This document shows positions 4,125 through 23,375 of a stretch of DNA of 64,000 nt, one piece after another; position 1 is the first letter of the stretch; each line of letters begins with the position of its first letter. This DNA is from Candidatus Micrarchaeia archaeon (GTDB lineage Bacteria; Chloroflexota; Dormibacteria; Aeolococcales; Bog-877): assembly GCA_035533215.1 (NCBI GenBank), contig DATLUG010000028.1, forward strand, positions 7,680 to 71,679, written 5' to 3'. A program made the position numbers and the translations under genes. The notes below the pieces were generated by a model, which saw nothing but the letters and a program-made list of their open reading frames with translations, made no database searches and was not told the DNA's origin.

Positions 4125-5843
4125 TCACTCAGCCGCCGCGCCGACCAGGGCGTCGGTGCGCTGGCGGCTCTCCAGGTACTCCTGGCGGCCGCGCGCCAGC
4201 TGGTCGCCGAGCACCTCCAGGCGTTCTGCGAACTCCTCGTCGTGAGCGCTCGCGACGTGGGCGTCGAAGACCGAGCTCTCGAAGTCGAACTCCTCGTCGA
4301 CCCGGCCCAGGATCATGTCGAGCTCGCCCACCACCAGCTCGAACAGGTTGATCCGCCGCTCCAGCACCCGTAGGATCCGGTCCTCGATGGTGCCGGAGCC
4401 GACCAGGTTGGCGAGGACGACCTCGTGGGCCTGGCCGATCCGATGGATGCGGCCGAGACGCTGCTCGATCCGCATCGGGTTCCAGGGCAGGTCGAAGTTG
4501 ATCATGGTGTGGCAGAACTGGAGGTTGCGGCCCTCGCCCCCGGCCTCGGTGCTGAGCAGGACCGGTCGCTCGACCTCGAAGCTGCGGATCGCGGCCTCCT
4601 TGTCGGCCCGCGGGAGGCTGCCGTGGTAGAGGGCGTGGGCGATGCCGGCCCCGTCGGCGACCGAGGACAGGAACGCCAGGGTGCGGCGGAAGCCGGTGAA
4701 GACGATCACCCGCTCCTCCCGCGCCAGGTGCCGCCTGAGCCGCTCCACCAGGACCTGCGCCTTCTCGGTGGTGGCGACCGCCGCCGCCCGGTTGGCGAGG
4801 TCGGGCCAGCCCACCGCCCGGAGCCCGGCCGCGAGCGCGGCGGGGCTGGACCCGGCCAGGCGCAGGACCTGGCGCAGGGCGAGCGAGCGGGCCGGCGGGG
4901 CCAGCCGGCCCTCCTCGCGGACCCGTTCCGAGACCAGCCGGTAGAGCTCGGCCTCCTCGGCCGCCGGCGCCACCCGCTGGGTCTCGGCCAGGCGGCGGGG
5001 GAGCATGAGGGCGACCTCGCTGCGCCGGTGCCGGACCATGACCGAGCGGGTCCGCCGCTGCAGCTCGGCGAGACGGCGGGCGGGCTCGGTCCCGTTGGCG
5101 GCGCCGTGCTGGCGACGGAACTCGCGCGCGGTGCCGAGGTGACCGGGGCGGACCAGGCTGACCAGGTGGAAGAGGTCATCGAGGCGGTTCTCGACCGGGG
5201 TGGCGGTGAGCAGGAGGAGGTAGCGGGTGCGCAGCTCGCGGGCCAGGCGGGCCGACCGGCTGGCGGGGTTCTTCAGGTGGTGGGCCTCGTCGGCGACGAC
5301 CAGGTCCCAGACGGTGCCGAGGAGCACCGGCCGGAGCGGGTCGCGGCGGGCCGACGCCAGCGAGACGATCACGACCGGATCGTCGCCGCCCTTCGACTCC
5401 AGGTCGCGGGCCCCGGCGCGGGGCACCAGCGACGGCAGGGCGAACTTGCGGTCGAGCTCGTCGCGCCACTGGTCGACGAGCCCGGCCGGGGTCAGGACCA
5501 GGACGCGGCGGGCCAGGCCGCGGAGGCGAAGCTCGCTCAGCACCAGGGCCGCCTCGATGGTCTTGCCGAGGCCCACCTCGTCGGCCAGGATCGCCCGTCC
5601 GCGCATGGTGCGCAGCGCCAGCTCGGCGGCGCGGAGCTGGTGGGGGAACGGCTCGAACCGCAGCCGCGGCAGGGAGATGAAGGTGTCGAACCCGTGTCGG
5701 GCCCACACCGCCAGCGCCTCCTCGACCAGGCTCGACGTCTGCGGGTCCGCGGCCAGCCCGCGCCGGAGGTGCGCCAGCAGCGGGTGGTAGCCGGCCAGGG
5801 GGTCGGCGGATGGAGCGCTGCCCTCTCCCATCGGAGTGCCCAT
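4125..5843 (-). CDS. SNF2/RapA-family DEAD/DEAH-box helicase (ATPase)
   Basis: Walker A motif DEVGLGKT, DEAH box (VVADEAHHLKN), SNF2 motifs TATPVENRLDDLF and helicase C-terminal motifs (QRLGRIHRIGQ). The track ORF extends to 6497, but the first ~218 codons are low-complexity with poor GC3. ATG at 5843 (MGTPMGEGS...) is the likely start. Confidence 0.85.
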   Translation of the reverse strand: MGTPMGEGSAPSADPLAGYHPLLAHLRRGLAADPQTSSLVEEALAVWARHGFDTFISLPRLRFEPFPHQLRAAELALRTMRGRAILADEVGLGKTIEAALVLSELRLRGLARRVLVLTPAGLVDQWRDELDRKFALPSLVPRAGARDLESKGGDDPVVIVSLASARRDPLRPVLLGTVWDLVVADEAHHLKNPASRSARLARELRTRYLLLLTATPVENRLDDLFHLVSLVRPGHLGTAREFRRQHGAANGTEPARRLAELQRRTRSVMVRHRRSEVALMLPRRLAETQRVAPAAEEAELYRLVSERVREEGRLAPPARSLALRQVLRLAGSSPAALAAGLRAVGWPDLANRAAAVATTEKAQVLVERLRRHLAREERVIVFTGFRRTLAFLSSVADGAGIAHALYHGSLPRADKEAAIRSFEVERPVLLSTEAGGEGRNLQFCHTMINFDLPWNPMRIEQRLGRIHRIGQAHEVVLANLVGSGTIEDRILRVLERRINLFELVVGELDMILGRVDEEFDFESSVFDAHVASAHDEEFAERLEVLGDQLARGRQEYLESRQRTDALVGAAAE

Positions 5844-6629
5844 CGTAGGGCGGGGGGGCCCGGCCCGGGGCGGCCGGGCTCCGACCGAAGGGAGGCCGAT
5901 GCGGAGGGCGGCGGCGCGCTGGGCCGCGTTGCCCGGCGCGAATCCGATGGCCTCCCCGGGGTCCGCCAGCCGGGGGGGTGCGAGCGACGACACCGGCCAG
6001 GTTCCAGGCGTCGAACGCCCGACCCACGTGGGCACGGAGCGGGCGCAGGGCCGCCGCCTCCACGCGCTCTGGGCCGGGTCCGACGACCGGCACCGGCCGG
6101 GCCGGCCGGTGCCGGGGTCCGCGTCCAAGGTCCCGGTGGTCATGGTCCGCTCCGGGTCGTCCAGCACCCCGGTGGACTCGGCGCGGCCGGTTCCTTGGGC
6201 CAGGTCGGCGCGGGCCAGCACCGGGGGGTCCGCGCAGCGGGTCACGGGGGGCCCGCCGCGGGTTGCGGCGACGGCGGGCGACGGGCGGCCGCCCCGGTTG
6301 GCCCCGCCGGCACCGACCCAAGGAGCCCTCGACCTGGCTCGCCGGCGCGTTGGTCGATCCGCGGGATCGGCGTCCTGGGCGGGGTCGAGATCCCTCCCGG
6401 GAGACGTCGACGCTCCGCCCGTCGCCGGCGGCGCAGGCCGCCAGGCGCGGTCCTCGGGTCGCGCCGGAGCCACGGCGTCATCCGCCCGGGCCGTCACGAG
6501 CCTCGCCGGCTCTCAGCCGGATCGCTCGGCGAAAGAGCCCCGCGCGGGCGGCCGGTATCCTGTCCCGGGGCAGGCGGAGGCGGGTGGTCCCGAGGGAGCG
6601 CATGCGGCGCCCCGTCCAGAGGCGTGTGC

Positions 6630-9600
6630 ATGGCGAAGGCCAGACGATCCGCGATCCAGTTCGGCACCATCATCGCCGGCAACTACCTGCCCTACGCGCG
6701 GGTGTTGGCGGCCTCGCTGGCGGTCTGGCATCCGGGCGCGCGGCTGCAGTGCCTCGTCATCGACGACCGCGAGGGCCGGGACCGGGGCGGCGAGCCGTCC
6801 TTCGACGTCCTCCACCTCGCCGACCTGGTCCGCGAGCCGGGCGAGCTGGAGCGGATGGCGATGTGCTACGACGTCATGGAGCTGGCCACCGCGGTCAAGC
6901 CGTGGCTGCTGCGGCACCTGCTCGAAAGGGGCGCCGCCGTCGCCGTCCACCTGGACCCCGACATCCTCTGCTTCGCCGAGCTCGACGAGGTGGAGGCCCT
7001 CGCGCGCGGCCACGGCATCGTCCTCACCCCCCACACCACCGAGCCGGTGCCCCGCGACGGGCGCAAGCCGACCGAGGCCGACCTGATGGAGACCGGCACC
7101 TACAACCTCGGCTTCGTCGCCGTCTCGCCGGCGGCGGCGCCGTTCCTCAGCTGGTGGCAGGTGCGGCTGCGGCGGGACGCGATCGTCGACCCCAAGGCGA
7201 TGCTGTTCACCGACCAGCGCTGGGTGGACCTGGTCCCCGGCTACTTCCCGGTGCACGTGCTGCGCGACCCCGGCTACAACGTGGCGTACTGGAACCTCGG
7301 CACCCGCACCATCGAACCGGCCGGGGACGGCTACACGGTGGGCGGCCGCCCGCTCCGGTTCCTCCACTTCAGCGGCTACGACCCCGACCGCCCCCACCTG
7401 CTCAGCCGCCACCAGGGCGAGCGCCCCCGGGTGCTCCTCTCCGAGCACCCGGTCCTGCGGCGGCTCTGCGACGACTACCGGCGGCGGCTCCTGCTGGCGG
7501 GCTACGGCGACCCCGACCTCCCCCGGTACGGGTACGGCCGGGTCCCCGGCGGCCCCCCCATCGACCGCCTGATGCGCCGGCTCTACCGCGTGGCCCTGCT
7601 CGCCAGCGAGGACGGCGGCCGCCCCGAGCCTCCCAACCCGTTCCGCCCCGGCGAGGCCCAGGCCTTCTGTGCCTGGCTGCGGGAGCCGGTGGGCGGCCCC
7701 GGCTCCCGCCTCACCCGCTACCTTGACTTCCTGTACCACGACCGGATCGACCTCCAGGTCGCGTTCAACGACGTGCCCGGCCCCGGGACCGAGTGGTTCC
7801 TCGGGTGGGCGCGCGACCACGGGGTCAGTGAGGAGGATCTGCCGGTGGAGCTGGTGCCGCCGCCGCTCGAGGCCGCGCCCGCCGACCCCGACGCCGCGTC
7901 CCTGCGGCGGCGTGCCGCCTCCTCGCGCGCCCCCCGCCCGGGGACCGCCGCGGCCGCCACCTGGCACGCGTTCGCGCCCCCCGGCCGCCGCCGGGCCGCC
8001 CCGGCGCGGCGGGTGCCGCCGACCGACGTCGGCGGCGGGGCCACCGGCCCCGACGACCCGGTCCAGGTGGAGGCGGACGGAGCGGTGGTGGCGACCGACC
8101 GGGGGCCGGGGCGGTCGTCCGCCCCCACCGTTCGCCGCCTCCCCGAGGGGGTCAACGTCGCCGGCTACCTGGAGGCCGACCTCGGTCTCGGGACGGCGGC
8201 CCGCGCGGTCCTCCGCGCGATCGAGCGGAGCGGGTCGGCGGTGGCGACGGTCGTGTACCGGGACACCCAGAGCCGCCAGTCGCGCCCGTTCGCCGCCCTG
8301 GTGGAGGGGGAGGCCCCCTACGACTGCAGCCTGGTCTGCATCAACGGCGACCTCCTCGGCAACTTCGCCCGCGATGCCGGCGCGGGCTTCTTCGAGGACC
8401 GCTACACGATCGCCCAGTGGCACTGGGAGACCGAGACCTTCCCGGCCTCGATGCGGGCCGGGCTCGGCTGGGTGGACGAGATCTGGGTCGCCAGCCGCTT
8501 CGAGCAGCAGGCGATGGAGCGCGAGACCGACAAGCCGGTGGTGGTGTTCCCGATGCCGGTGGTGGACGACGAGGCGGCGGCGCCGCTGGCCCTCCCCCGC
8601 GAGGCGCTCGGGCTGCCGCAGGGGTTCCTCTTCCTGTTCTGCTTCGACTTCCTCAGCGTCATGGAGCGCAAGAACCCGGTGGGGCTGGTGGAGGCCTTCG
8701 GCAGGGCCTTCCCGCCGGGGTCCGGCAGCCACCTGGTGATCAAGAGCATCAACGGGGAGCGCCGGCCGAACGAGCGCGAGCGGCTGCGGCTCGCCGCCGC
8801 GGCGCACACGGACGTCCGGCTGCTGGAGTCGTACCTGAGCGGGTCGGAGGTGCAGGCCCTCACCGCCACCTGCGACTGCTACGTCTCCCTCCACCGCTCC
8901 GAGGGGTTCGGGCTCACCCTGGCCGACGCGATGGCGGCGGGCAAGCCGGTCATCGCCACCCGGTACTCCGGCAACCTGGAGTTCATGTCCGACGAGACGG
9001 GCTACCTCGTCGACTGCACCCTGGTCCCGGTCGGGGACTCGGGCGCCCCCTACCCCCCCTCCCACCGCTGGGCTGAGCCCGACCTCGACGACGCCGCCCG
9101 GCTGATGCGCCTGGTGGTGGCCGACCCGGAGGCGGCCCGCGCCCGAGCCGCGCTCGGCCGGGCCGCCCTGCGCCGGCGCTTCACGACCGCGGCCTGCGCG
9201 GCGTTCGCGGCCGAGCGGCTGGCGGTGATCCGCGCCGCCCGGGCGCTGGCCCTGCCCCGAGAGCCGCTCGGGTGGCTGGACGCGGACGGCACCCGGCTCC
9301 CGGCCCCGCAGGAGCCGGCCCCGGCCGAGCCGGACCCGGCCGAGCCGGACCCGCCCGAGCCGGACCCGGGTGAGCCGGCTCCGCCCGACCGCTCCGAGGC
9401 CGACGGGCCGGCGGCTCCGGGTAACCCCGAGACCGCCGCGGCCGAGTCCTGGCCGGTGGGGGCCGGGCCGGTCGAGGAGGGAGAGCTGCCCGAGGTCGAG
9501 CCGGAGGGCGGCCGGCCGGACACGGTGGAGTCCGGGAGTCCGGAGGGGATGGGCGCCGACGGCCCTGAGATCCCGGAACCCGACGCCCTGCCGCCGGCTC

Positions 9601-10526
9601 CGGCCCCCGAGCCGCGGCCCGACCCCGAGCTCCCGCCCGAACCCGAGCCGGCGGCCGAGGACCGGGCCGCGGCTCCGGCTCCGGCGACCTCCGAGCCGAC
9701 CGCGGTCCCTCCGCTGCCGGTCGCCGAGGCGACCCAGCGGCTGGTCGCCTCGCGCGCGGTCGAGGCGGACCTCCCGCCCCGGGCGGGCCTGCGGGGCTGG
9801 GCGGCCGCCCTGGTCCGCCGCCGGGTGGACCGGCTGCTCGTCCCCTACGACCGCCGCCAGCGCGCGATCGCCGAGGCGCTGCTCACCTCGATCCGGGAGG
9901 TGGCGGGAACGGTGCCGGCGGCGGCCGACCTGGTGCACCGGCGGGTCGACGGCGCCGAAGCCCGCCGGGCGGCCCTGGGGGACCGGCTGGAGGGGTTGAC
10001 CGGCCAGCTCGACCGGCTCACCGGCCACGTCGACCGGCTCACCGGCCACGTCGGCGCGCTCGACCACGCCCTGGGCGGCCTCCGCGACGGCCTCAACGCA
10101 CGCATCGACGGCGTCGGCGGCCGGATCGACGGCCTCGGCGGCCGGATCGACGTGGCGACGGCGGGGCTGGGGACGATGACCGAGCACCTCGACCGGCTGA
10201 CCCGCCACGTCCAGGGGATCACGGTCCTGGTCGACCAGCTCAACGGCCGCACCGAGGGACTGGAGGCCCGCCAGGGCCGCATCCTGCTGCGGCACGACCG
10301 GCTCGCCAGCCGGGTCGATCGCACCGAGGACCTCGTCACCCACCTGGAGCGGGTCGAGCGCGAGCTGCTGCGGGCCCGGCGGGCGGCGGAGCGGCTGGTC
10401 GCCACGGCAGAGGCCGGGGGGTCCCTGCCGGCGCGTGGGGCGACCCCGGCGCCGCCCACGGGCGGCCCCCGGCCCCGCCGGCGGGCGCCGCGGCGGGGTC
10501 AGGGAGCGGGCCCCGACGCCAGCTGA
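6630..10526 (+). CDS. Giant bifunctional glycosyltransferase: an N-terminal GT-A-like domain with a DxD motif, a central GT4 (GT-B) domain, a Pro/Glu-rich linker and a C-terminal ~140-aa heptad-repeat coiled coil. Putative glycan polymerase.
   Basis: ATG at 6630 (MAKARRSAIQFG) preceded by GAGG. N-terminal domain has HLDPDILCF. GT4 signature EGFGLTLADAMAAGKPVIATRYSGNLEF. C-terminus is RLTGHVD/RLTGHVG/.../DGVGGRI/DGLGGRI heptads. The upstream part of track ORF 4425..10526 is antisense to the helicase and is non-coding. Confidence 0.85.
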   Translation: MAKARRSAIQFGTIIAGNYLPYARVLAASLAVWHPGARLQCLVIDDREGRDRGGEPSFDVLHLADLVREPGELERMAMCYDVMELATAVKPWLLRHLLERGAAVAVHLDPDILCFAELDEVEALARGHGIVLTPHTTEPVPRDGRKPTEADLMETGTYNLGFVAVSPAAAPFLSWWQVRLRRDAIVDPKAMLFTDQRWVDLVPGYFPVHVLRDPGYNVAYWNLGTRTIEPAGDGYTVGGRPLRFLHFSGYDPDRPHLLSRHQGERPRVLLSEHPVLRRLCDDYRRRLLLAGYGDPDLPRYGYGRVPGGPPIDRLMRRLYRVALLASEDGGRPEPPNPFRPGEAQAFCAWLREPVGGPGSRLTRYLDFLYHDRIDLQVAFNDVPGPGTEWFLGWARDHGVSEEDLPVELVPPPLEAAPADPDAASLRRRAASSRAPRPGTAAAATWHAFAPPGRRRAAPARRVPPTDVGGGATGPDDPVQVEADGAVVATDRGPGRSSAPTVRRLPEGVNVAGYLEADLGLGTAARAVLRAIERSGSAVATVVYRDTQSRQSRPFAALVEGEAPYDCSLVCINGDLLGNFARDAGAGFFEDRYTIAQWHWETETFPASMRAGLGWVDEIWVASRFEQQAMERETDKPVVVFPMPVVDDEAAAPLALPREALGLPQGFLFLFCFDFLSVMERKNPVGLVEAFGRAFPPGSGSHLVIKSINGERRPNERERLRLAAAAHTDVRLLESYLSGSEVQALTATCDCYVSLHRSEGFGLTLADAMAAGKPVIATRYSGNLEFMSDETGYLVDCTLVPVGDSGAPYPPSHRWAEPDLDDAARLMRLVVADPEAARARAALGRAALRRRFTTAACAAFAAERLAVIRAARALALPREPLGWLDADGTRLPAPQEPAPAEPDPAEPDPPEPDPGEPAPPDRSEADGPAAPGNPETAAAESWPVGAGPVEEGELPEVEPEGGRPDTVESGSPEGMGADGPEIPEPDALPPAPAPEPRPDPELPPEPEPAAEDRAAAPAPATSEPTAVPPLPVAEATQRLVASRAVEADLPPRAGLRGWAAALVRRRVDRLLVPYDRRQRAIAEALLTSIREVAGTVPAAADLVHRRVDGAEARRAALGDRLEGLTGQLDRLTGHVDRLTGHVGALDHALGGLRDGLNARIDGVGGRIDGLGGRIDVATAGLGTMTEHLDRLTRHVQGITVLVDQLNGRTEGLEARQGRILLRHDRLASRVDRTEDLVTHLERVERELLRARRAAERLVATAEAGGSLPARGATPAPPTGGPRPRRRAPRRGQGAGPDAS
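9981..10400 (+). repeat. Imperfect tandem 21-bp (7-codon) repeats encoding the C-terminal heptad array of the glycosyltransferase
   Basis: Consecutive 21-nt units, e.g. ggccagctcgaccggctcacc / ggccacgtcgaccggctcacc (19/21 identical) and gacggcgtcggcggccggatc / gacggcctcggcggccggatc (19/21 identical). At least 9 clear units span 9981..10170, with looser heptads continuing to ~10400. Confidence 0.7.
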
Positions 10527-10563
10527 GCCGTCCCGCCGCCCGGCCCCGGGCGGAGCCGGGCTG

Positions 10564-11241
10564 GTGATCGCCCTCAAGGCCCCGGTCGGCGCCAAGCAGC
10601 GGCTGGCGGGGGTCCTGACCCAGTCCCAGCGCCGCCTGGTGGCGCTCGCGCTCGGGGCCCGCTGCCTGCGGTGCGCGATGCGGACCTGGCCAACAGGGCG
10701 GGTCGTGGTGGTGGGGGCGGGGGAGGAGGTCGCCGAGCTGGCGGCCCGCCACGGCGTTGGCGCGGTCCTCAGCGACCCCGGGTCCGGCCAGAGCGCGGCG
10801 GTCGCGATCGGCGCCCGCTGGGTGGTGGGCCAGGGGCTGGACCGCCTGGTCACGGTGGCCGGCGACCTGCCGGACGTGCGGGAGGACGACCTCCGGTGGC
10901 TGCGCCGGCTCGCCGAGGACCTCGGCGGCCCCGGGGTGGTGGCGGTGCCGGACACGGCCGGGACCGGCACCAACGCCCTCGTCGTCCGACCCGCGACCGC
11001 CGACGTGCTCGCCTTCGGCCCCGACTCCATCGCCCGGCACCGGGCCCGGGCGATGGCCCTGGGGCTGCCGTTCTCGGTCGCGGGGCGCCCGACCCTGGCC
11101 CGCGACTGCGACCGTCCCGAGGACCTCCGGGCGATCCTCGCCGGCGGGGATGGGGCGCTGCGGGGCCTGATCGACGGCGGGGGGCCCCCTACACTCGGTC
11201 GTGTGGCAACCCCGCCGCCTCCCGGCCGCGACCACCCCTGA
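10564..11241 (+). CDS. cofC: 2-phospho-L-lactate guanylyltransferase CofC/FbiD (F420 biosynthesis)
   Basis: LVIALKAPVGAKQRLAGVL... matches the CofC/MobA-like fold. GTG at 10564 with GGAG 8 nt upstream. Track ORF 10435..11241 is in the same frame. Confidence 0.65.
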   Translation: MIALKAPVGAKQRLAGVLTQSQRRLVALALGARCLRCAMRTWPTGRVVVVGAGEEVAELAARHGVGAVLSDPGSGQSAAVAIGARWVVGQGLDRLVTVAGDLPDVREDDLRWLRRLAEDLGGPGVVAVPDTAGTGTNALVVRPATADVLAFGPDSIARHRARAMALGLPFSVAGRPTLARDCDRPEDLRAILAGGDGALRGLIDGGGPPTLGRVATPPPPGRDHP

Positions 11242-11243
11242 CC

Positions 11244-12044
11244 GTGGCTCCCACCGTCACCGCTGAGCGGCTCCAGTGCTGGGCCGTCGGCGGCGTGGGC
11301 GAGGTCCTTCCGGGCATCGACCTCGCGGCCCACCTGGCGGCCCCGATCCGGGCGGCCGGCGGTCTTCGCCCCTGGGACGTCGTGGTGGTGACCCACAAGA
11401 TCGTCTCCAAGGCGGAGGGGCGCCTGGTGGAGCTGGGCACGGTCGAGCCCGGACCGGACGCCCTGCGGCTGGCGGACCAGGTCGGCAGCGACCCCCGCCT
11501 GGTGGAGGTGATCCTGCGGGAGACGCGCCGGGTGGTGCGGGCGGTGCCCGGGCTGCTGGTGGCCGAGACCCACCAGGGGCTGGTGTGCGCCAACGCCGGG
11601 GTCGACCGCAGCAACGTCGGCGGCGGCGGCCTGGCGAGCCTCCTGCCCGAGGACCCCGATGCCAGCGCCGACCGGCTCCAGCGAGCCTGGCTGCCGCTCG
11701 CGGGCGGCGGTCCCCTCGGGGTCGTCGTCACCGACACCTTCGGCCGCCCCTTCCGGGACGGCGGGGTCAACGTCGCCATCGGGGTCGCCGGGATGCCGGC
11801 GATGAGCGACCACCGCGGCGTCGAGGACCCCTACGGGTACCAGCTGCGGGTCTCCACCCTCGCCACCGCCGACGAGATCGCCGGCCTGGGGGAGCTGGTC
11901 ATGGGCAAGGTGGAGGAGCGGCCGCTGGCCGTGGTCCGCGGGCTCAGATGGGAGAAGGGGGCGGGGGACGGCGACGGCGGCGGAGCCGCGGCCGGAGCCC
12001 GCGCGCTGCAGCGGGATCCCGCCCGCGACGTGTTCCGGTGGTAG
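11244..12044 (+). CDS. cofE: Coenzyme F420-0:L-glutamate ligase CofE
   Basis: C-terminal 267 aa of track ORF 10671..12044: VVVTHKIVSKAEGR...GLVCANAGVDRSNVGGGG...VVVTDTFGRPFRDGGVNVAIGVAG is the CofE signature. GTG start is 3 nt after the cofC stop. Confidence 0.7.
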   Translation: MAPTVTAERLQCWAVGGVGEVLPGIDLAAHLAAPIRAAGGLRPWDVVVVTHKIVSKAEGRLVELGTVEPGPDALRLADQVGSDPRLVEVILRETRRVVRAVPGLLVAETHQGLVCANAGVDRSNVGGGGLASLLPEDPDASADRLQRAWLPLAGGGPLGVVVTDTFGRPFRDGGVNVAIGVAGMPAMSDHRGVEDPYGYQLRVSTLATADEIAGLGELVMGKVEERPLAVVRGLRWEKGAGDGDGGGAAAGARALQRDPARDVFRW

Positions 12045-12736
12045 GGGGGACGGCCGCCGCGCCGATCACGGTGCTGCTCTTCGCCGGGCTGCGCGAGCAT
12101 GCGGGCCAGGACCGCCTGGCGCTGGAAGCGACCACCGCCCCCATCGACGCCGCCGGGTGCTGGGAGCGGTGCTGCGCCCGATTCCCGGGCCTGGAGGAGG
12201 CGGCCGGCTCCAGGGCCAGCCTCCGGGTCGCCCGCAACCGCGAGCTGGTGGGATGGGATGCGGCCGTGCTCCCCGGCGACGAGCTGGCCTTCATGCCCCC
12301 GGTCTCGGGCGGGCGCGGTGACGGGGCCGAGGCGGGGCCGGTTCGGGTGCGGGTGGGCCCGGACCCGATCGACGTCGCCCAGCTGGCGGCGAGCCTGCCG
12401 GCGACCGGGGCGGGGGCCCGGGTCACCTTCTGCGGCATCGTGCGCGACCCCGACGACGGCCGCAGCGTCCCGTACCTCGACTACGAGGCCTACCAGGCGA
12501 TGGCGGAGGCGGAGTGCCGCCGCCTGGCCGAGGCCGCCGTGCGCGAGTGCGGGGCCCTGGCGGTCGCGGTCCAGCACCGGACCGGCCGGGTGGCGGCGGG
12601 GGAGCCGTCGGTGGCGGTGGTGGCGGTGGCCGCGCACCGCGGGGCCGCCTTCGAGGCCTGCTCGCGGGTGATCGACCGCTTGAAGGCCGAGGCGCCGATC
12701 TGGAAGCGGGTCGGCCCCCCGGCCACCCCCTGCTAG
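12038..12736 (+). CDS. moaDE: Molybdopterin synthase MoaD-MoaE fusion (ThiS-like sulfur carrier ending GG, fused to the catalytic subunit)
   Basis: ITVLLFAGLREHAG...ELAFMPPVSGG (MoaD with C-terminal GG) followed by VTFCGIVRD...YLDYEAYQAMAE (MoaE). Start is approximate (a GTG overlapping the cofE stop). Same frame as track ORF 11276..12736. Confidence 0.65.
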   Translation: MVGGTAAAPITVLLFAGLREHAGQDRLALEATTAPIDAAGCWERCCARFPGLEEAAGSRASLRVARNRELVGWDAAVLPGDELAFMPPVSGGRGDGAEAGPVRVRVGPDPIDVAQLAASLPATGAGARVTFCGIVRDPDDGRSVPYLDYEAYQAMAEAECRRLAEAAVRECGALAVAVQHRTGRVAAGEPSVAVVAVAAHRGAAFEACSRVIDRLKAEAPIWKRVGPPATPC

Positions 12737-12748: not shown

Positions 12749-13609
12749 GTGGCCACGAAGGAATTCCTGGCCGTGCCGTCCGTCGGCGGGCCGGCGCGCG
12801 TCCCCCCCAGCGGCGCCCTGGCGCGCAATCGCGAGCTCCTGACGGAGCTGGTCCGGCGCGATGTCAAGGCCCGCTACCGGGGCTCGGCCCTGGGCGTGCT
12901 CTGGTCGCTGCTCAACCCGCTCCTGTTCATGGCCGTCTACACGGTCGTGTTCTCGGTCCTGCTGGCCGCGGTCTACCCCGGCGGCGTCCCCGCCGCCGCC
13001 TACATCCTGACCGGTCTCCTGGTCTGGAACTTCTTCAGCCAGGCGGTGAGCTTCGCCACCTCCAGCGTGCTGAGCAACTCCGGCCTGGTGCGCAAGGTGG
13101 CGTTCCCCTGGGTGCTGCTCACGGTCTCCTCGGTGACCGCGGCCCTGGTCAACTACGTCATCAGCCTGGTCCTGCTGATCCCGATCTACATCATCTTCCA
13201 CCTGCCGGTGGGGCTGCCGATGCTGCTGCTGCCGGTGCTGGTGGTGATCCCGTACGTGCTGGCGCTGGGGGTGGGCCTGCTGCTGGCCGCCGGCAACGTG
13301 TTCTTCCGCGACCTGGAGCACCTGGTCCAGGTGGGCCTTTTGGTCTGGCTCTACCTCACCCCGATCGTGTATCCACCCAATCTGGTCGCCCAGCACGACC
13401 ACGGCCTCGGCGGTCACGTCTTCTCCCTCTTCTTCAAGTTCAACCCGATGACGTGGGTGATCGGCGCGATGGAGAACGTCGTCACCCGCGGGCTCTGGCC
13501 GATCCACTGGCACGGGCTGGTCTATGCGGCGTTCGTGGCGGCGGTGCTGCTGGCGCTCGGCATCGTGGTCTTCCAGCGCGCCCGGCGACGGTTCGCGGAG
13601 GAGGTCTGA
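12749..13609 (+). CDS. wzm: ABC-2 type polysaccharide export permease (Wzm/KpsM/TagG family)
   Basis: 286 aa with 6 predicted TM helices. Conserved N-terminal ELLTELVRRDVKARYRGSALGVLWSLLNPLL motif of ABC-2 permeases. Confidence 0.85.
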   Translation: MATKEFLAVPSVGGPARVPPSGALARNRELLTELVRRDVKARYRGSALGVLWSLLNPLLFMAVYTVVFSVLLAAVYPGGVPAAAYILTGLLVWNFFSQAVSFATSSVLSNSGLVRKVAFPWVLLTVSSVTAALVNYVISLVLLIPIYIIFHLPVGLPMLLLPVLVVIPYVLALGVGLLLAAGNVFFRDLEHLVQVGLLVWLYLTPIVYPPNLVAQHDHGLGGHVFSLFFKFNPMTWVIGAMENVVTRGLWPIHWHGLVYAAFVAAVLLALGIVVFQRARRRFAEEV

Positions 13610-14841
13610 TGGGCGCCCCCAGCGCGATCGAGGTGCGCGGGGTGCGCAAGCGCTTCCGCATCTACCACCAGCGCAACCAGACCCTGAAGCAGACCCTGGT
13701 CAACCGCGGCCGCGGCTCCTACGAGGAGTTCTGGGCGGTCCGCGACGTGAGCTGCACCATCCCTCCCGGATCCACCCTCGGCATCATCGGCGCCAACGGC
13801 TCGGGCAAGTCGACCCTGCTCAAGTGCATCGCCGGGATCCTCGTCCCCGACGCCGGCTCGGTCAAGGTGCGGGGACGGCTGGCAGCGCTGCTGGAGATCG
13901 GCTCCGGCTTCCATCCCGAGTACAGCGGCCGCGAGAACATCTACCTCAACGGCGCCCTGCTGGGGCTGCCCCGCCGCTACATCCAGTCGGTCTTCGCCGA
14001 GATCGTGGCCTTCTCCGAGCTGGAGCGGTTCATCGACAACCCGGTCAAGACCTACTCCTCCGGGCAGTACATGCGCCTCGGCTTCTCGGTCGCGGTCCAC
14101 CTCGACCCCGACGTGCTCCTGATCGACGAGGTGCTGGCGGTGGGCGACCAGGCCTTCCAGCGCCGCTGCCTCGACCGGATCGACCAGCTCAAGGCCCAGG
14201 GACGCACCATCGTGTTCGTCTCCCACGGCCTCGGCGCCGTCCGCGACCTCTGCGACACCGCCCTCTGGATGGACCACGGGGTGGCGCGCGCGCTGGGGCC
14301 CACCGAGCGGGTGGTGGGGGAGTACATCGCCAAGGTCAACCAGATGGAGGCGGCCCGGCTGGAGCAGGAGATGACCAGCCACCCCATCCTCCCCGGCGGC
14401 CGGGCCGGGGTCGGGATCACCGAGATCAGCTACGTGGGGCGGGACGGTCCCACCGCCCTGTTCGAGACCGGCGATCCCTTCGAGCTCCGGATCGCCTACA
14501 CGGCCCCGGTGCCGCTGGAGGGGGCGCGCTTCTACGTCAGCTTCGTGCGCGAGGACGGCGTCGTCGCCCTCACCGTCCCCACCGACGACCGCCTGCTCCA
14601 CGACAAGGTGCTGCCCGCCCAGGGGATGGCGCGGCTGGTGATCCCCCGGCTGCCCCTGCTGGAGGGGCTGTTCCGGGTCACCGTCGGGATCGCCGAGATC
14701 GCCACCGGCGAGTGGTACACGCTGCTCGACCGCATCTACCCGTTCCGGGTCAACACCACCGACCGCGCCGAGCGGGGGGTGGCCCTGCTGGGGCAGAGCT
14801 GGTCCCTGCCGCCGCCGCTGCGGCGAAGGCTCTCCGCCTGA
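13609..14841 (+). CDS. wzt: Polysaccharide ABC transporter ATP-binding protein, Wzt/TagH-like, with a ~160-aa C-terminal beta-rich extension (candidate glycan-binding domain)
   Basis: ATG overlaps the permease TGA (TGATG), with GGAGG upstream. Walker A GANGSGKST, signature YSSGQYMRLGF, Walker B LLIDEVLAVGD. About 160 residues follow the nucleotide-binding domain. Confidence 0.85.
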   Translation: MGAPSAIEVRGVRKRFRIYHQRNQTLKQTLVNRGRGSYEEFWAVRDVSCTIPPGSTLGIIGANGSGKSTLLKCIAGILVPDAGSVKVRGRLAALLEIGSGFHPEYSGRENIYLNGALLGLPRRYIQSVFAEIVAFSELERFIDNPVKTYSSGQYMRLGFSVAVHLDPDVLLIDEVLAVGDQAFQRRCLDRIDQLKAQGRTIVFVSHGLGAVRDLCDTALWMDHGVARALGPTERVVGEYIAKVNQMEAARLEQEMTSHPILPGGRAGVGITEISYVGRDGPTALFETGDPFELRIAYTAPVPLEGARFYVSFVREDGVVALTVPTDDRLLHDKVLPAQGMARLVIPRLPLLEGLFRVTVGIAEIATGEWYTLLDRIYPFRVNTTDRAERGVALLGQSWSLPPPLRRRLSA

Positions 14842-16187
14842 TGAGCGTCGCCACCCCCGCCGCCGCCTCCACCCGGGGCCAACGTGCCCCCGCCGCCACC
14901 CCCACCGTGAGCGCGGTGGTCCTCACCTACGAGCCCGAGGCGGCGATGCTGCGGCGCTGCCTGGACAGCCTGGTGGCCTCCAGCCACCGCCCCCTGGAGC
15001 TGGTCCTGGTCGACAACGGCTCCCGCGGGCGGGCGGCGGCGGCGGCCGCCGCCGGCTGGAGCCCTGGCCCGACCGACCCGGACGACCTCGCCGCGGGCGA
15101 GCTGGCCGCCCGCGACGGGGTGCCCGTGCGGTTCGTGCCGCTGGCGGCCAACCTCGGCTTCGCCGAGGGCACCAACCGGGGGATCGAGGCCGCCACCGGC
15201 GAGCTCTGCCTGCTCCTCAACCCCGACACCGAGATCGAGCCCGACACCATCAGCCACCTGGTGGCGGCCGCCCGCCGCCATCGGGAGGCGATCGGCTTCG
15301 CCCCCAAGATCCTCTTCGTCCACGACCGCCAGCTCATCGACAGCATCGGGCTGGTCTTCCACGACAACGGGGGCGCGGCCCAGCGCGGCCTCGGCAGCTA
15401 CGACGTCGGGCAGTACGACCGCGAGGAGCCGGTGTCCGGGGTGTGCTTCGGGGCCGCGCTCGTCCGCCGGGAGGCGTTCACCACCGACCGGGTCGGCTGG
15501 CTCGACCGGCGCTACTTCATGTTCTACGAGGACGTCGACTGGAGCCTGCGGGCGTTCCAGCGGGGGGAGTCGTTCTGGACCGTCCCCGAGGCCCGCGTCT
15601 ACCACGTCCACTCGGCCTCCACCCGCCATCGCCCCGACGGCTACAAGTACCACCTGATCCAGCGCAACCTGCTGCTCACGGTGTTCAAGAACTTCGAGCG
15701 GCAGCGGGTCCGCCCGGTGCTGATGCGGCGGGCCGCCTTTCTGCTCCGCAACGCCGCCCGAGGCCAGCACCGCTCCGCCTCGCTGCGGGCCCTGGCCGGG
15801 GCCGGGGTCGGCTTCTGCCGGGAGTGGGGCGCCCGCCGCGAGCAGCAGCAGCGCCGTCGCCGCTCCGACGCCGAGATCTTCCAGTACAACCTCGGGGAGC
15901 GCACCCACTTCGACGCCGCCGTCTACCGCCCGGTGCACACCTGGGAGACGCTGCGGGACATGGTCCGGCGCCTGTACGTGACCACCGCCGAGCCCCGCTG
16001 GGAGCGCGCCCACGCCTACGTGGAGGTGGCCGGCGGCACCGCCGCCCGCCACGACCCGCAGCTGCTGCGCTCCCGGCTGGAGGCGATCGCGGCCCCGCTG
16101 CCGGCGGGGCTGGTCCGCTTCCTCGACGAGATGGGCGGCCCCCCGGCGGCGTCGGTGCCGGGGACCGGGCGGAGGTCGGGCGGGTGA
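14841..16187 (+). CDS. Family 2 glycosyltransferase (GT-A)
   Basis: ATG overlaps the Wzt stop (TGATGA). VVLTYEPE...LVLVDNGS...NLGFAEGTNRGIE...LLNPDTE are GT2 hallmarks. Lies within track ORF 13524..16187. Confidence 0.8.
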   Translation: MSVATPAAASTRGQRAPAATPTVSAVVLTYEPEAAMLRRCLDSLVASSHRPLELVLVDNGSRGRAAAAAAAGWSPGPTDPDDLAAGELAARDGVPVRFVPLAANLGFAEGTNRGIEAATGELCLLLNPDTEIEPDTISHLVAAARRHREAIGFAPKILFVHDRQLIDSIGLVFHDNGGAAQRGLGSYDVGQYDREEPVSGVCFGAALVRREAFTTDRVGWLDRRYFMFYEDVDWSLRAFQRGESFWTVPEARVYHVHSASTRHRPDGYKYHLIQRNLLLTVFKNFERQRVRPVLMRRAAFLLRNAARGQHRSASLRALAGAGVGFCREWGARREQQQRRRRSDAEIFQYNLGERTHFDAAVYRPVHTWETLRDMVRRLYVTTAEPRWERAHAYVEVAGGTAARHDPQLLRSRLEAIAAPLPAGLVRFLDEMGGPPAASVPGTGRRSGG

Positions 16188-16217: not shown

Positions 16218-18236
16218 GTGAGAGGTGCGTCGATGGCGGGGGCTGAGCCGCCGGCGGAGGAGCCGGACCCGGCGCCTGGGCCGCCCGACCAGCCCGTCGT
16301 GCTGCCGGCCTGGGCCGAGGCCAGCCTCGGCGCCTTTGGCCTGGAGGGGGAGGACCAGGGCTCGGCGCCCGAGCCCACACCGGGCGACGCCGTGCCGCCC
16401 CGCCCCAGAGGGCCGGCGGCGGAGGACCGTCCGGGCTCCGTGCCCGCGGCGGCGGCGACGCCGCCCTTGGCGCCGCGGCCGCCCGCGACCCCGCCGCTCC
16501 CAGCCCGCCCCCCGGCCGCGGAGGCCAACCCGTGGCCGGAGCCGGCGTCGACCCGGAAGGGGATGCGGGAGCCCACCCCGCCGCCGCCGGCGCCGGACCC
16601 GGCTCCGGTCCCGGCGCAGCCGCCCGCCGCTGCGCCCGCCACCCTGCTCGGGCGTGCCGCCTGGAGCGTGCGCACCCTCCCGGGCCCCGCCGCCACCCGG
16701 ACCGCGGCGCCGGGATCGCCGGCGGTGCCGGCGGCCGCGCCGACGGCCGCGCCGACGGCCGCCCCGCCCCGCCCCCACGGTGTTGCGCGCCCGCCGGTTG
16801 CGACACCGACGCCCCCGCGTGCGCCGAAGCCCGCGGCCCGCGAGCGGAGCGCTGCCCTGCGGGTGGCCCTGCCGGTGGCGCTGGCCCTGGCGGCGGCGGC
16901 CGGGGCGGTGGCGGCGCTCACCCGGTTCTGGGTCGACGTCACCGTCGGCCGCGACCTCACCCTGCTGCCCGTGCTCCGGCTGCAGGACGCCGGCACCCTC
17001 AGCCTCGCCGCCCTCTGGCACCCGATCGAGGGCAGCCGGATCCTCGCTCCGGAGCTGGTCGTGTTCGGTCTCCTGCCCGCCGTCCACCTGGACACCCGGG
17101 CGGAGATGCTGGTCGGCATCCTCCTCCTCATCGCCACCGCCTTCGCGCTCTTCGCCGTCTGGGGCGAGCCGGGACGGTGGCGGTGGTGGTGGTTCCTGCC
17201 GGCGGTCCCGCTGGTCTGCAGCCTGGTCCAGCTCCCGACCCTGCTGCTCGGCTTCCGGTTCGGCGACGCCCTGGCGCTGGCGGGGGTGGCGGCCGCCCTG
17301 GCGATGCTGAACCGCGACCAGCTCGAGCTCGGCGCCTTCCTCTTCGCGGTGCTGGGCGCCGGGATCGCCACCTGCTCCTCCTTCGAGGGCCTCTTCGTCT
17401 GGCCGGCGGGGCTGGTGGTCCTCGCCGGTCGACAGGGAAGCTGGATCGCCCGCGCGGGCTGGGCGCTCTGCGGGGCGGGGGCGGCGGTGGCGGTGCTCTG
17501 GCACCTCGACCTCGCCGGGCTCGGCGGGCCCGGGCTCCCCGTCTTCTGGGACCAGCCGGGTCGGGCCCTCGGCTTTCTCCTCACCTCGATCGGGTCGGTG
17601 CTGCCGGCCCCCGGCGGCGGGATCTTCGGGGTCTGGCAGGCCGAGGTGCTGGGCGGAGCGATCCTGCTCGCGGCGGTGCTGGTCGCCTGCTGCTGGCGGC
17701 TGCGCCGCCCCGACGACCGGCGGCTGGCCGGGGTGTCCGGGGTGGCCGCCTTCGCGATCCTGGTGGACCTCGCCGAGACCGCCGGCCACGCCCAGTTCGG
17801 GGTCGCCACCGCCATCGGGTCCCGCTACCTGGCGGTCAACCTCCTCCTGCTCGCCGCGGTCTACCTCGGGGTGGTGACGGCGCTGGGCGGGGCGCGGGCG
17901 CTCCCGCCCACCGCCGCCCCCGCCCCCGCCGGCGGCGCGCTCGGGAGGCGCGGCGGCGCCCTGGCCCGCGGCAGGGCCGCGTCGGCCACGATCGCCACCG
18001 GCGCGGCGGTCGCGCTGGTCCTGGCCGCGGTTGCGCTCGGGGTGCCGGCCGGCCTGCGCACCGGTGCCAGGGTGCGGACCCAGCGGCTCCGGTCGGCCGC
18101 CGTCCTCGCCGACTACCGGACCGCCTCCGCCCAGGCGATCCTGCGCACCCTCTACCCGTCGGCGCCCCGGCTCCGGGCCGACGCCGCGTTCCTCGCCGCC
18201 AACCGGCTCGGGATCTTCGCCGGCCCGACCCGGTAG
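16218..18236 (+). CDS. Polytopic membrane protein with an N-terminal Pro-rich region, function unknown; possibly an envelope glycan-related GT-C or ligase-type protein
   Basis: 672-aa ORF. The ~200-aa Pro/Ala-rich N-terminus is followed by ≥10 hydrophobic helices (e.g. WRWWWFLPAVPLVCSLVQLPTLLLGF). High GC3 in the membrane portion. Confidence 0.55.
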   Translation: MRGASMAGAEPPAEEPDPAPGPPDQPVVLPAWAEASLGAFGLEGEDQGSAPEPTPGDAVPPRPRGPAAEDRPGSVPAAAATPPLAPRPPATPPLPARPPAAEANPWPEPASTRKGMREPTPPPPAPDPAPVPAQPPAAAPATLLGRAAWSVRTLPGPAATRTAAPGSPAVPAAAPTAAPTAAPPRPHGVARPPVATPTPPRAPKPAARERSAALRVALPVALALAAAAGAVAALTRFWVDVTVGRDLTLLPVLRLQDAGTLSLAALWHPIEGSRILAPELVVFGLLPAVHLDTRAEMLVGILLLIATAFALFAVWGEPGRWRWWWFLPAVPLVCSLVQLPTLLLGFRFGDALALAGVAAALAMLNRDQLELGAFLFAVLGAGIATCSSFEGLFVWPAGLVVLAGRQGSWIARAGWALCGAGAAVAVLWHLDLAGLGGPGLPVFWDQPGRALGFLLTSIGSVLPAPGGGIFGVWQAEVLGGAILLAAVLVACCWRLRRPDDRRLAGVSGVAAFAILVDLAETAGHAQFGVATAIGSRYLAVNLLLLAAVYLGVVTALGGARALPPTAAPAPAGGALGRRGGALARGRAASATIATGAAVALVLAAVALGVPAGLRTGARVRTQRLRSAAVLADYRTASAQAILRTLYPSAPRLRADAAFLAANRLGIFAGPTR

Positions 18237-20510: not shown

Positions 20511-21023
20511 TCAGCCGGGAGGGGGAGGGGAGCCGGTCACGCCCCGCCTGGCGGCGGCACGGAAGGTGACCCGGTCGTTGGCGAGGTAGTTCCACAGGCT
20601 CGCCGACGCCGCCCCGCAGAGGCTGGCCACCAGGTAGTGGAGGCCCAGCACCGTCGCCGCGGTCAGCAGCACCGCCTCGTTGAGGCCGAGCCCGACCAGG
20701 CTCACCGCCTCGAAGGTGAGGAACCGCCGAGGGCCGGCGCTCCCCCCGGCCCGGTCGCGCCAGGTGATCCTGGAGTTGACCGTGAAGGTGACCAGGATGG
20801 CGGTCTGGATCGCCAGGCCCGATCCCAGCCAGAGGGGCAGGTGGAGCCGGCCGTACAGGAGCGCGGTCGCGCCCAGCTGGGTGCCGAGCCCCAGCAGCCC
20901 GGCGGTCACGAAGGCGGCCAGCCGGGTGGGGTGGGTCCGCGGCACCCGGCGGCCGGTGCGATCCGCGGGGGCCCCGATCCGGAGCGTCGGCTCGGGCAGG
21001 CGGGAGGTGGTGGGGGGCAGCAT
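20511..21023 (-). CDS. GtrA-family membrane protein (polyprenyl-phosphate-sugar translocation or glycosylation accessory)
   Basis: 170 aa with 4 TM helices. Matches the GtrA family pattern (AAFVTAGLLGLGTQLGATALLY ... NYLANDRVTFR). Confidence 0.75.
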   Translation of the reverse strand: MLPPTTSRLPEPTLRIGAPADRTGRRVPRTHPTRLAAFVTAGLLGLGTQLGATALLYGRLHLPLWLGSGLAIQTAILVTFTVNSRITWRDRAGGSAGPRRFLTFEAVSLVGLGLNEAVLLTAATVLGLHYLVASLCGAASASLWNYLANDRVTFRAAARRGVTGSPPPPG

Positions 21024-21452
21024 GGTGGGACCGGAGCCGGCGCGGCTCTCTGATCGAGCCTACCAAGCGGTAGCGAACCGGATGGCCGTTGCCGTGGTCA
21101 CACCTGGGTGGCAACCGGGTGGCGCCGGGATGACGGCGGCGGTGCCGGCGGCGGTGCCGGCGGTGCCGGTCGTGCACCGCGGGGCGGGCGTGCGCGAGGC
21201 TCGCCGATCATCCGTCGGTGACCGGCGAGGGCACGGTGAGCAGCCGCGAGGCGGATGGCGGAGCCGGGCGGCGGTCCCGTCCGCCGTGGGCGGCCACCCT
21301 GCGGATCCGGCCGACACGGGCGCCGGCGGGAGACGGTGGCGGGGGTGGCCCGTGGTCGGTCCGGCTCCCCGCACCCCTGGAGCCGCTCGCCCCTGCACCG
21401 CCGCCAGCCGGGAGACCCTCCCAGCACGCGCCGACGCGGCGGCCGGGATCGC

Positions 21453-21932
21453 TCACCGGGCGCTGCTGCAGGTGGCGGCGGGGTGCGATGGGGCCTCGTC
21501 CTGTCGCGCCCTGCCCGACGTCCGCTTGCAAGCCCCAGGCGTCAGTCGGGGCGTTGTCGGTCGAGCCTGAGGCGGGCGCACATGACCAGCCAGGCCGCCC
21601 GCGTGGTGCGGCGGTGTCCCGATCGCCGCACGGTTGGCGTATTCGTCCGCAATCGCAGCGCCATCAGCAGGGCTGTGCCACCCGACACGACAACGGAACT
21701 CCCTGAGGGTGCATGTGGCTTCAGTCATGATGACGGCCCCGAACGCGTCCTCGTGATGCCGATGCCATCCATCTCGCTCGTGCCACGCCTTCACCGTGAG
21801 ACGCCTCCTGTGATCAGGCATCTCGGCGAGCCCACCCCGGCGAGGCTTCCTGTCGGGATCCCCGGCGCCCCAGCATCGGGGTCGGACGAGGCGGATCCCT
21901 TCAGCGGCCAGTGCGCGGTGCACGCGGACCAC
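21453..21932 (-). CDS. Hypothetical protein in a low-GC islet; possibly a gene remnant
   Basis: 159-aa ORF whose GC3 is clearly lower (many NNT/NNA codons) than surrounding genes. No family recognised and no clear ribosome-binding site. Confidence 0.2.
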   Translation of the reverse strand: MVRVHRALAAEGIRLVRPRCWGAGDPDRKPRRGGLAEMPDHRRRLTVKAWHERDGWHRHHEDAFGAVIMTEATCTLREFRCRVGWHSPADGAAIADEYANRAAIGTPPHHAGGLAGHVRPPQARPTTPRLTPGACKRTSGRARQDEAPSHPAATCSSAR

Positions 21933-22149
21933 GTGGCTGCCACCGCGCCACGTCCAGGGCGTGCGCTGGGGGCGAAGGTGGCGGAGTCAGCGGTCTCGGT
22001 TCTGTCAGGCCCCGGTCACGGGCAGCATCCGAGTCCGGCCCGTGCTGAACCCACGCCTGCCAGAGGGAGATGCATCGGCGCAGCTGATGGCGATGGAAGC
22101 GCCCGACGGGGGTGAGGGAGCCAACGACCGAAGGAGCCATCGGATGCCC

Positions 22150-22178
22150 GAGGGGAGGGACATCGCATCCCTCCCCTC
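22150..22178 (-). terminator. Stem-loop 9 nt downstream of the collagen-like gene stop; candidate intrinsic terminator without a U-tract
   Basis: Perfect 11-bp inverted repeat gaggggaggga / tccctcccctc with a 7-nt loop (catcgca). No T-run follows. Confidence 0.4.
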
Positions 22179-22186
22179 GTGCCAGT

Positions 22187-22954: not shown

Positions 22955-23375
22955 ATGGTCCTCCGAAGCGATGGGTTGGGATTCGCCCACGCCCAGGGTA
23001 GGCGGCAGCTCAGCCCGCCCGCAACCACGGGTGGATGATGGCCGCTGCGGGGGCGGAGCCGACAGCGGACGACGAGATTGGGCACGTTGGATCATCTCGC
23101 GACGCACGAGACCGTTGGGGCCGCGTGGCATGCTGGCGGCATCTGGGCGGCCGCGGCGGGTCAGGAGTGGGCGTGCCTCTCCGACCACCCCGACCGCGGG
23201 CTGCCCGCGGTCGGGGCCGAGACGGGCGCACCGGGAGGCCGTCACCGAGGCGACCCCGTTGCCCTGCTGGCTCACCGCACCCCTAAAGTCGCGCGCCGGT
23301 GCTCGAGCCGCACCCAGCTGGGGTAGCCCGCCATCACGCGCCGAGCCCGGGGCCAGGATCGCTCCTCGTGCGCTG

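Follow-up and report, generated by a model that had tools for sequence, protein, structure and literature searches.

A putative two-glycosyltransferase polymerase with a long, conserved coiled-coil arm and no terminator domain, encoded near Wzm/Wzt export genes

The 64-kb window studied here (the whole stretch of contig DATLUG010000028.1 that was analysed) encodes a protein combining two glycosyltransferase (GT) modules with a disordered linker and a long coiled-coil arm. The gene lies upstream of genes for a Wzm/Wzt-type ATP-binding cassette (ABC) transporter. Judged by its domains and homologues, the protein appears to belong to a large family in which polymerase, coil and methyltransferase follow one another in reverse of the order described in characterised systems, and to stand out in it by a long arm and the lack of a terminator. 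Nucleotide positions are those of the window and residue numbers those of the 1298-residue protein.

Translation of positions 6630-10526 (+) gave an open reading frame (ORF) of 1298 codons and a stop, whose product matches NCBI protein HVA21654.1 exactly. A plot of G+C content by codon position (GC3 frame plot) indicated that the + frame is coding from ~6721 to 10560. A start at 4425, called by the GC3 gene caller, was rejected as an antisense artefact of the neighbouring SNF2 gene; homologues begin at the 6630 Met. In NCBI this protein carries the label Candidatus Micrarchaeia archaeon, while close relatives are assigned to Candidatus Dormiibacterota (two metagenome-assembled genomes, MAGs) or Verrucomicrobiia/Verrucomicrobiae. 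Given the window G+C of ~77% and genes of bacterial type, the archaeal assignment probably stems from faulty binning, and a bacterial, high-G+C host is evident from gene content. The features of the gene are listed below with their evidence (AF2, AlphaFold2 model; pLDDT, predicted local distance difference test; HMM, hidden Markov model; TRF, Tandem Repeats Finder).

6630..10526, + strand: whole gene, GT8-like plus GT4 plus linker plus coiled-coil protein (translation, GC3 frame plot, exact match to HVA21654.1)
6630..7874, + strand: N-terminal GT-A-like (distantly GT8-like) domain, residues 1-415 (AF2, invariant DPD, profile match)
6954-6962, + strand: DPD motif, residues 109-111 (conservation)
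7875..8144, + strand: disordered, poorly conserved interdomain stretch, residues ~416-505 (AF2 pLDDT <50 for residues 425-500)
8145..9248, + strand: GT4 (GT-B) glycosyltransferase domain, residues ~506-873
9249..9707, + strand: Pro/Glu-rich disordered linker, residues ~874-1026 (composition, TRF, sequence)
9300..9388, + strand: 15-bp tandem array in the linker, EPxPx, 5-6 units (TRF period 15, 5.9 copies)
9789..9929, + strand: conserved pre-coil module, residues ~1054-1100, RGWAAALVRRRVDRLLVPYDRRQRAIAEALL... (HMM of relatives; four-lineage alignment)
9927..10415, + strand: heptad coiled-coil region, residues 1100-1262, ~21-23 heptads (periodicity and shuffles, AF2 helices, weak generic coiled-coil matches)
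9999..10061, + strand: 21-bp tandem array 1, units LDRLTGH / VDRLTGH, 3 copies (TRF; units at 10008 and 10029 20/21 identical)
10085..10152, + strand: 21-bp tandem array 2, units IDGVGGR / IDGLGGR, 3.2 copies (TRF; units at 10104 and 10125 20/21 identical)
10416..10523, + strand: Gly/Pro/Arg-rich disordered C-terminal tail, residues 1263-1298, no further domain (AF2 pLDDT <50, composition)

A first-pass annotation of this DNA had described a 1299-residue dual-domain glycosyltransferase ending in a coiled coil. The ORF is real, one residue shorter than stated, and both catalytic domains were recovered. Residues 1-880 were modelled by AF2 with a pLDDT of 87.7 and a predicted template modelling score (pTM) of 0.85 from a 53-sequence alignment. 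The model contains an N-terminal alpha/beta domain, a disordered segment at residues 425-500 and a GT-B domain at residues 508-873. pLDDT exceeded 90 across most of the N-terminal domain, where a beta-strand immediately precedes D109-P110-D111, a motif invariant in 121 aligned sequences. It is reasonable to describe this domain as GT-A-like with a DxD motif. Its assignment to family GT8 is weak: the N-domain of the window sequence had no Pfam match, one of the seven sequences in the N-domain profile matched Pfam Glyco_transf_8 (PF01501) at 1.3e-4, and the profile itself matched the GT8 structure 3tzt, with DPD aligned, at a weak E value of 0.012. Structure searches with the GT core mostly returned matches to the GT-B domain. 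Pfam analysis of the whole protein detected GT4-type domains only (residues ~680-860), and Pfam and structure search together revealed the Glycos_transf_1 domain and GT-B fold that characterise CAZy GT4. Both modules being modelled confidently, the protein has the multi-module GT make-up of WbbB/WbdD-type machinery and would presumably act as a polymerase.

The GT4 domain is followed by a linker that is Pro/Glu-rich, as had been noted: residues 866-1026 (161 residues; P42 A29 E25) are 26% Pro and 15% Glu. The arm of the protein, which spans some 160-210 helical residues and is taken as ~190 in comparisons with relatives, then opens with a module homologous to the LLRxLRPYWWxQR module that opens the arm in relatives. 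An HMM built from 49 relatives scored 14.3 bits at residues 1056-1100; with 2000 shuffled tails, the few top scorers inspected reached best-domain scores of 5.4 bits or less. This match indicates that the arm is homologous to that of the family and is no new addition, contrary to the description of the coil as appended to the polymerase. Downstream of the module, residues ~1100-1262 displayed a period-3.5 hydrophobic power of 4.83, where the highest of 1000 shuffles reached 1.39, and an a/d heptad window score of 11.75, where the highest of 500 shuffles reached 10.05. According to the heptad score, this is the sole such segment in the protein and the sole extended coil among the window proteins. 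AF2 predicted two long helices in the tail, at residues 1054-1162 and 1170-1262, in agreement with the heptad coil proposed there.

The periodicity is not "strict", as had been claimed. A 4-residue unit, LNAR (residues 1155-1158), introduces a stutter, three residues being missing here in comparison with homologue P0002, whose heptads are regular; the Gly content of the coil is unusually high (13.5%), and the two AF2 helices are separated by a break at a Gly-rich IDGLGGR unit (residues 1163-1169). This break, near the middle of the arm, raises the alternative of an antiparallel hairpin made of two helices (109 and 93 residues) with the Gly-rich repeats at its tip, acting as a localisation or as a membrane- or cytoskeleton-binding module. 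The variable Gly-rich units sit at the midpoint with conserved parts on both sides, and the 3-residue deletion lies 8 residues ahead of the break, both points in favour of a hairpin. We nevertheless consider this fold highly improbable, since confidence in the tail model is low, Foldseek returned zero matches with it, and the ~100-residue arms of relatives seem continuous by heptad score. In a search of 1.8 billion representative proteins with the tail (residues 1040-1298), full-length coverage came solely from the 50% cluster to which it belongs; the 138 remaining matches, nine of which were sampled, were generic coiled-coil proteins (for example DUF7310, P10 and LPP-like families), none informative as a partner.

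Four lineages that are 66-73% identical overall were compared. The pre-coil module was almost invariant between them, as were residues 1055-1140 and 1186-1260 as a whole, whilst the linkers and the C-terminal tails (36 residues, poorly conserved) diverged freely. Such conservation of module and distal coil indicates purifying selection, and the arm is likely to be functional because these parts are so strongly conserved.

The genes found downstream of the polymerase gene point to glycan export. The cofC gene starts 38 nt past the polymerase stop and is followed, in order, by cofE, a moaD-moaE fusion, a Wzm permease gene, a Wzt ATPase gene, a GT2 gene and a gene for a polytopic membrane protein. 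The last four are:

12749..13609, + strand: Wzm-type ABC-2 permease (Pfam ABC2_membrane, E 9e-19)
13609..14841, + strand: Wzt-type ATPase with a C-terminal Wzt_C carbohydrate-binding-type module (Pfam ABC_tran, Wzt_C)
14841..16187, + strand: GT2 glycosyltransferase (Pfam Glycos_transf_2; conserved in the relatives' loci L001-L003)
16218..18236, + strand: polytopic membrane protein with a Pro-rich N-terminus (no Pfam match; follows the GT2 gene also in L001 and L002)

The wzm/wzt genes lie 2.2 kb downstream of the polymerase gene, and this gene order is conserved in three relatives (L001, L002 and L003). Four homologues (P0025, P0045, P0048 and P0119) are encoded directly beside wzm/wzt (loci L010, L011, L014 and L016). 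At L012, L013, L015 and L017, wzm/wzt were not seen within 10 kb. The proposal that the protein belongs to an ABC-transporter-dependent glycan pathway is supported by these arrangements. The best NCBIfam match of the permease was the galactan-export permease Wzm/RfbD, below the curated cutoff of that family; the best matches of the ATPase were TagH/Wzt-type exporters, also under their curated cutoffs. The Wzt_C module scored 37.4 bits in Pfam against a cutoff of 30.4 (residues 631-756 of the long ORF) and is predicted to bind a cap. The locus possesses both the transporter and the carbohydrate-binding Wzt module that accompany WbbB/WbdD-type machinery.

To place the protein among its homologues, 8,000 candidates from a search of 5.8 billion proteins were scored, of which 1,840 matched at E <=1e-5. 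All of the top 120 homologues have the two-GT core. They were classed using motif regular expressions and the heptad score: by the S-adenosylmethionine (SAM)-motif expression, 55 of the 120 have an extension with a SAM methyltransferase, ~30 consist of the core only and ~28 have a coil extension without methyltransferase. An FExxFRG motif is found in 60 of 121 aligned sequences. In 34 methyltransferase-fused relatives the arm, taken as the distance between the PY motif and FExxFRG, has a length of 61-305 residues (median 158); in ten coil-only relatives it measures 55-102 residues, about half the length of the window arm, and the window protein has the longest coil-only extension (433 residues). 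The family occurs in Acidimicrobiales, Gaiellaceae, Vicinamibacteria, Dormiibacterota and other MAGs. The window protein has in common with it both the complete two-domain core (41-53% identity) and the RPYWW-type module of the arm. Its clade is isolated, with a core identity of 82% within the clade and at most 53% to all others, and the Pro/Glu linker is specific to this clade.

The family occurs in both fused and split forms, because two loci encode standalone proteins made of the KLxWPxLxHQ module shared with the family arm, a ~150-residue coil and an FExxFRG SAM methyltransferase (L012, 12866-14131; L017, 12622-13959). Both genes lie directly downstream of methyltransferase-less family polymerases. 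Two or three paralogous two-GT genes are found side by side at L012, L016 and L017.

The coexistence of fused, split and coil-only forms implies frequent domain gain and loss, and the window arm resembles in length those of methyltransferase-fused relatives. The arm could in this light be an evolutionary remnant, left after loss of a C-terminal methyltransferase and contributing at most solubility or spacing. The pre-coil module and distal coil are, however, conserved almost residue for residue in the four lineages, the signature of purifying selection, which makes a remnant improbable. A nearest-neighbour analysis of the core for methyltransferase loss in the clade was uninformative, all non-clade relatives being about equally distant (51-53%).

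The family has counterparts among studied polysaccharide pathways. An extended coiled-coil protein is a characteristic marker of the ABC-transporter-dependent assembly strategy of Klebsiella and E. coli O antigens (PMC11231755). In O9a (WbdD) and O12 (WbbB) the coil is a molecular ruler whose length sets chain length, and the coiled-coil protein is also a membrane-associated scaffold for the complex (PMC11231755). Polymerase modules share a polypeptide with the coil in O12 and O7 and are separate proteins in O3/O9 and O4, and all known rulers lie between polymerase and terminator (PMC11231755). In characterised systems, a Wzt_C-type module binds the terminal cap (PMC11231755). The fusion of coil and polymerase, which the first-pass annotation contrasted with WbdD, has precedents in WbbB and K. 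pneumoniae O7 ORF6 (PMC11231755).

WbbB (Raoultella terrigena / K. pneumoniae O12) and O7 ORF6 carry a terminator, a coiled-coil ruler and two polymerase GT modules on a single polypeptide. Similarly to them, the window protein would serve an ABC-transporter pathway and combines a pair of GT modules with an extended coil on the same chain, and the methyltransferase-fused relatives hold all three elements. Unlike in WbbB and O7 ORF6, the order in the family is reversed, with the polymerase N-terminal and the terminator C-terminal; the modules are GT8-like and GT4 instead of GT102/GT103 or GT2; and the window protein has no terminator domain and a 161-residue disordered linker before its coil. 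In the WbdD/WbdA system (E. coli O8, O9a / K. pneumoniae O3, O5) a methyl-type terminator sits on the coiled-coil ruler, the multi-GT polymerase is separate and a Wzt module recognises the cap. The split loci L012 and L017 resemble this layout, and the window Wzt has a Wzt_C module. Unlike WbdD, whose coil belongs to the terminator and recruits the polymerase through its membrane-proximal end, the window protein has the coil on the polymerase, and the coil is followed by a disordered Gly/Pro/Arg stretch instead of an amphipathic membrane helix. Sequence similarity to WbdD was not detected for any window protein.

A further parallel to the methyltransferase-fused relatives is WsaE of the Geobacillus stearothermophilus S-layer glycan pathway, a methyltransferase fused to two rhamnosyltransferase domains. 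It combines polymerase and methyl-capping in one protein of a Gram-positive-type ABC-transporter pathway. It differs in GT families and domain order, and the window protein has no methyltransferase. To our knowledge, WsaE contains no long coiled coil. Control of polysaccharide length by coiled-coil rulers is well established for ABC-transporter-dependent pathways, and, as far as is known, the rulers studied to date are all Proteobacterial and all have the terminator on the coil.

Collectively, these comparisons suggest that the methyltransferase-fused relatives follow the polymerase-ruler-terminator design of WbbB and WbdD in reversed order, their methyltransferase presumably being chain-terminating. 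The window protein displays every structural hallmark of that design except the decisive one, a terminator on the coil: 36 disordered residues are all that follows the coil, where about half of the homologues have the methyltransferase. The ruler analogy raised by the first-pass annotation is therefore apt for the family, in which about half of the top 120 members have a methyltransferase past an arm of 61-305 residues, and is unlikely to extend to the window protein, which has no terminator.

We favour, with a probability of roughly 55%, the view that the protein is a bifunctional glycan polymerase for Wzm/Wzt export, whose arm is an oligomerisation or scaffold element and possibly a dock for a partner. 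The GT8-like GT-A and GT4 polymerase would most likely build a polyprenol-linked polysaccharide, which the nearby Wzm/Wzt transporter would export. The arm consists of the conserved RPYWW-type module and coiled coil of the family; in the window clade, found in MAGs mostly binned as Dormiibacterota, it appears as a long arm on a 161-residue disordered tether, devoid of a catalytic domain. Its most likely role there would be to oligomerise the polymerase or to provide a scaffold for the assembly complex, and it may also dock a partner such as a terminator. A ruler acting within the single polypeptide is unlikely because no distal domain follows the coil. A rigid ruler is also disfavoured because the disordered linker splits the catalytic domains from the coil.

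Several points weigh against this view. F420 and molybdopterin genes separate the polymerase gene from wzm/wzt, and a functional link between them is proposed because the order of the genes is conserved, not because an operon was demonstrated. Scores for the coil come from a home-made heptad measure and not from a calibrated predictor. The AF2 model of the tail is a low-confidence monomer (pLDDT 65.5, pTM 0.27) from a 4-sequence alignment, and does not discriminate between a parallel oligomer and an antiparallel hairpin. Finally, by analogy with characterised exporters, the Wzt_C module would imply a capped glycan and hence a terminator.

Searches for such a terminator yielded no convincing gene. 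No methyltransferase of the family type was found in the 64-kb window, either by tblastn with the extensions of P0025, P0115, P0010 and P0045 or by an FExxFRG scan. A weak match at 42897-43115 was rejected as a solute-binding protein. The methyltransferase gene at 32193-33173 (g22) was also rejected, its product being a generic class I enzyme with neither a coil nor similarity to WbdD. The 10-kb flanks of the polymerase gene in three relatives contained no candidate partner terminator. At L003 (8785-9453, - strand), a gene for a small UbiE-like SAM methyltransferase lies between a DUF2079 gene and the polymerase gene; it is missing from the window, L001 and L004.

The cap-binding-type module also leaves room for a ruler acting between proteins, an inverted form of the WbdD/WbdA pair. 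A terminator encoded elsewhere would dock on the distal coil (residues 1186-1260) or pair with it through a coil of its own, the length of the coil would determine how long a chain must be before it can be capped, and the cap would then be recognised by the Wzt module. The Wzt_C score above the Pfam cutoff is in line with this, such modules binding caps in characterised systems (PMC11231755). So is the pattern of conservation, in which a nearly invariant distal coil and a middle that varies in heptad steps resemble a binding site and a spacer. L012 offers a related arrangement, with a polymerase carrying its own module and a short coil, followed by the standalone module, coil and methyltransferase protein. 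The window arm is also within the length range of methyltransferase-bearing arms. We still regard this model as unlikely: the only methyltransferases near the polymerase are generic (g22 and the small one restricted to L003), the partner searches above were negative in the window and the relatives' flanks, and a 161-residue disordered linker would blur any measurement of distance. The more specific version for the window clade, in which a cap-adding enzyme docks distally on the polymerase coil and gain or loss of Gly-rich heptads tunes length between lineages, is a shade less likely again. If true, it would be the first example of a ruler borne by the polymerase while the terminator is a separate protein.

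The locus represents no new principle. The same ruler logic would nonetheless apply to a family of soil phyla that is both very large and uncharacterised, in which the domain order is reversed and fused, split and coil-only forms occur. One clade retains a long, strongly conserved arm but no terminator, despite a Wzt with a cap-reading-type module, which makes one ask which enzyme would cap the glycan and to what the arm binds.

The DNA encoding the coil had been read as imperfect 21-nt tandem repeats, with several pairs of heptads 19/21 identical. Three pairs do reach at least 19/21: amongst 21 heptad-sized units compared, two adjacent pairs were identical at 20/21 positions and one non-adjacent pair at 19/21, all others at 18/21 or fewer. 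This does not make the entire coil a tandem array. Tandem Repeats Finder confined the 21-bp period to the two arrays of about three copies listed above (85-94% match), and the 15-bp array in the linker is a better tandem array than either.

Length variation was analysed in a small sample of assembled sequences from separate assemblies, made of the 90%-identity cluster that includes the window protein (five members) and a sister cluster (five). Heptad regions were identical within both clusters, so that no polymorphism in the number of heptad units was found among these ten near-identical sequences. The only length difference in the first cluster was one 15-bp unit of the linker (PAEPD, residues 898-902), present in the window allele and missing from the other four; every member of the sister cluster is 1295 residues long. 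This indel could be an assembly artefact. In one relative ('clean280'; L002 start / L004 end) the assembly is interrupted within the gene, at the low-complexity segment between the domains (residues ~392-463), which suggests that repeat-rich parts of the gene are fragile in short-read assembly and that repeat counts from MAGs need caution.

A different picture emerged between lineages. The stretch between the invariant motifs VDGAEARR and HLDRLTRH is 80, 90, 76 and 97 residues long in the four lineages, three of the four lengths differing by exact multiples of 7. Array 2 sits in this stretch, and each lineage has its own 21-bp array there (3.0-4.2 copies, 80-96% match) with different unit sequences. 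The alignments thus indicate that heptad (21-bp) units have been gained and lost in mid-coil over evolutionary time. Because each lineage has its own array and a different coil length, the repeats would turn over across lineages and would not switch. The four lineages form a natural coil-length series differing by whole heptads, usable for examining the ruler idea outside Enterobacteria.

These data bear on the original proposal of a ruler built into the polymerase, with slippage or recombination at the 21-bp repeats altering the coil and thereby making polymer length differ from cell to cell or strain to strain. It draws on the heptad-multiple differences between lineages, on the lineage-specific homogenised arrays and on the effect of coil length on chain length in characterised systems (PMC11231755). 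A contingency locus would possess a long array of near-identical tandem units; the coil has just 2-3 similar units per array, and the sole indel among the ten close relatives is in the linker. No terminator ends the coil, whereas known rulers separate polymerase from terminator (PMC11231755). A length-variation switch is consequently not borne out, and we judge the proposal as a whole distinctly improbable.

The surroundings of the gene also differ between relatives. At 10564-12736 of the window, the cofC-like, cofE-like and MoaD-MoaE fusion genes form an odd interleaving that is kept in three relatives, L001 adding a gene for a solute-binding protein. The Wzt protein encoded beside the methyltransferase-fused homologue P0025 (L010, 13621-14949, - strand) has 442 residues; its C-terminal extension has weak methyltransferase-family matches, no Wzt_C, and is unrelated to the C-terminus of the window Wzt. 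Since these two differ, the transporters associated with the family would carry differing accessory modules.

Upstream of the polymerase, the window contains a PIN/Phd toxin-antitoxin pair (1235-1872), a gene for a 725-residue protein with a Cys-rich Zn-ribbon-like motif (1922-4099, - strand) and a gene for an SNF2-family helicase (4125-6497, - strand). They lie between a DUF2079 gene and the polymerase gene in the window only; in L001, L003 and L004 the DUF2079 gene is ~1-2 kb upstream of the polymerase. The segment 1235-6497 resembles an island inserted in this strain alone, perhaps with a role in defence.

Further downstream, positions 20511-33173 of the window hold a second cell-envelope glycan cluster, with the following genes in order:

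20511-21023: GtrA-like protein
24096-25565: GT4 glycosyltransferase
next in order: GT2 glycosyltransferase, then GT4 glycosyltransferase
27934-31128: AftD-like GT-C glycosyltransferase, 1064 residues
next in order: GT2 glycosyltransferase
32193-33173: Zn-ribbon methyltransferase

Parts of this second cluster directly follow the first cluster in the relative L002.

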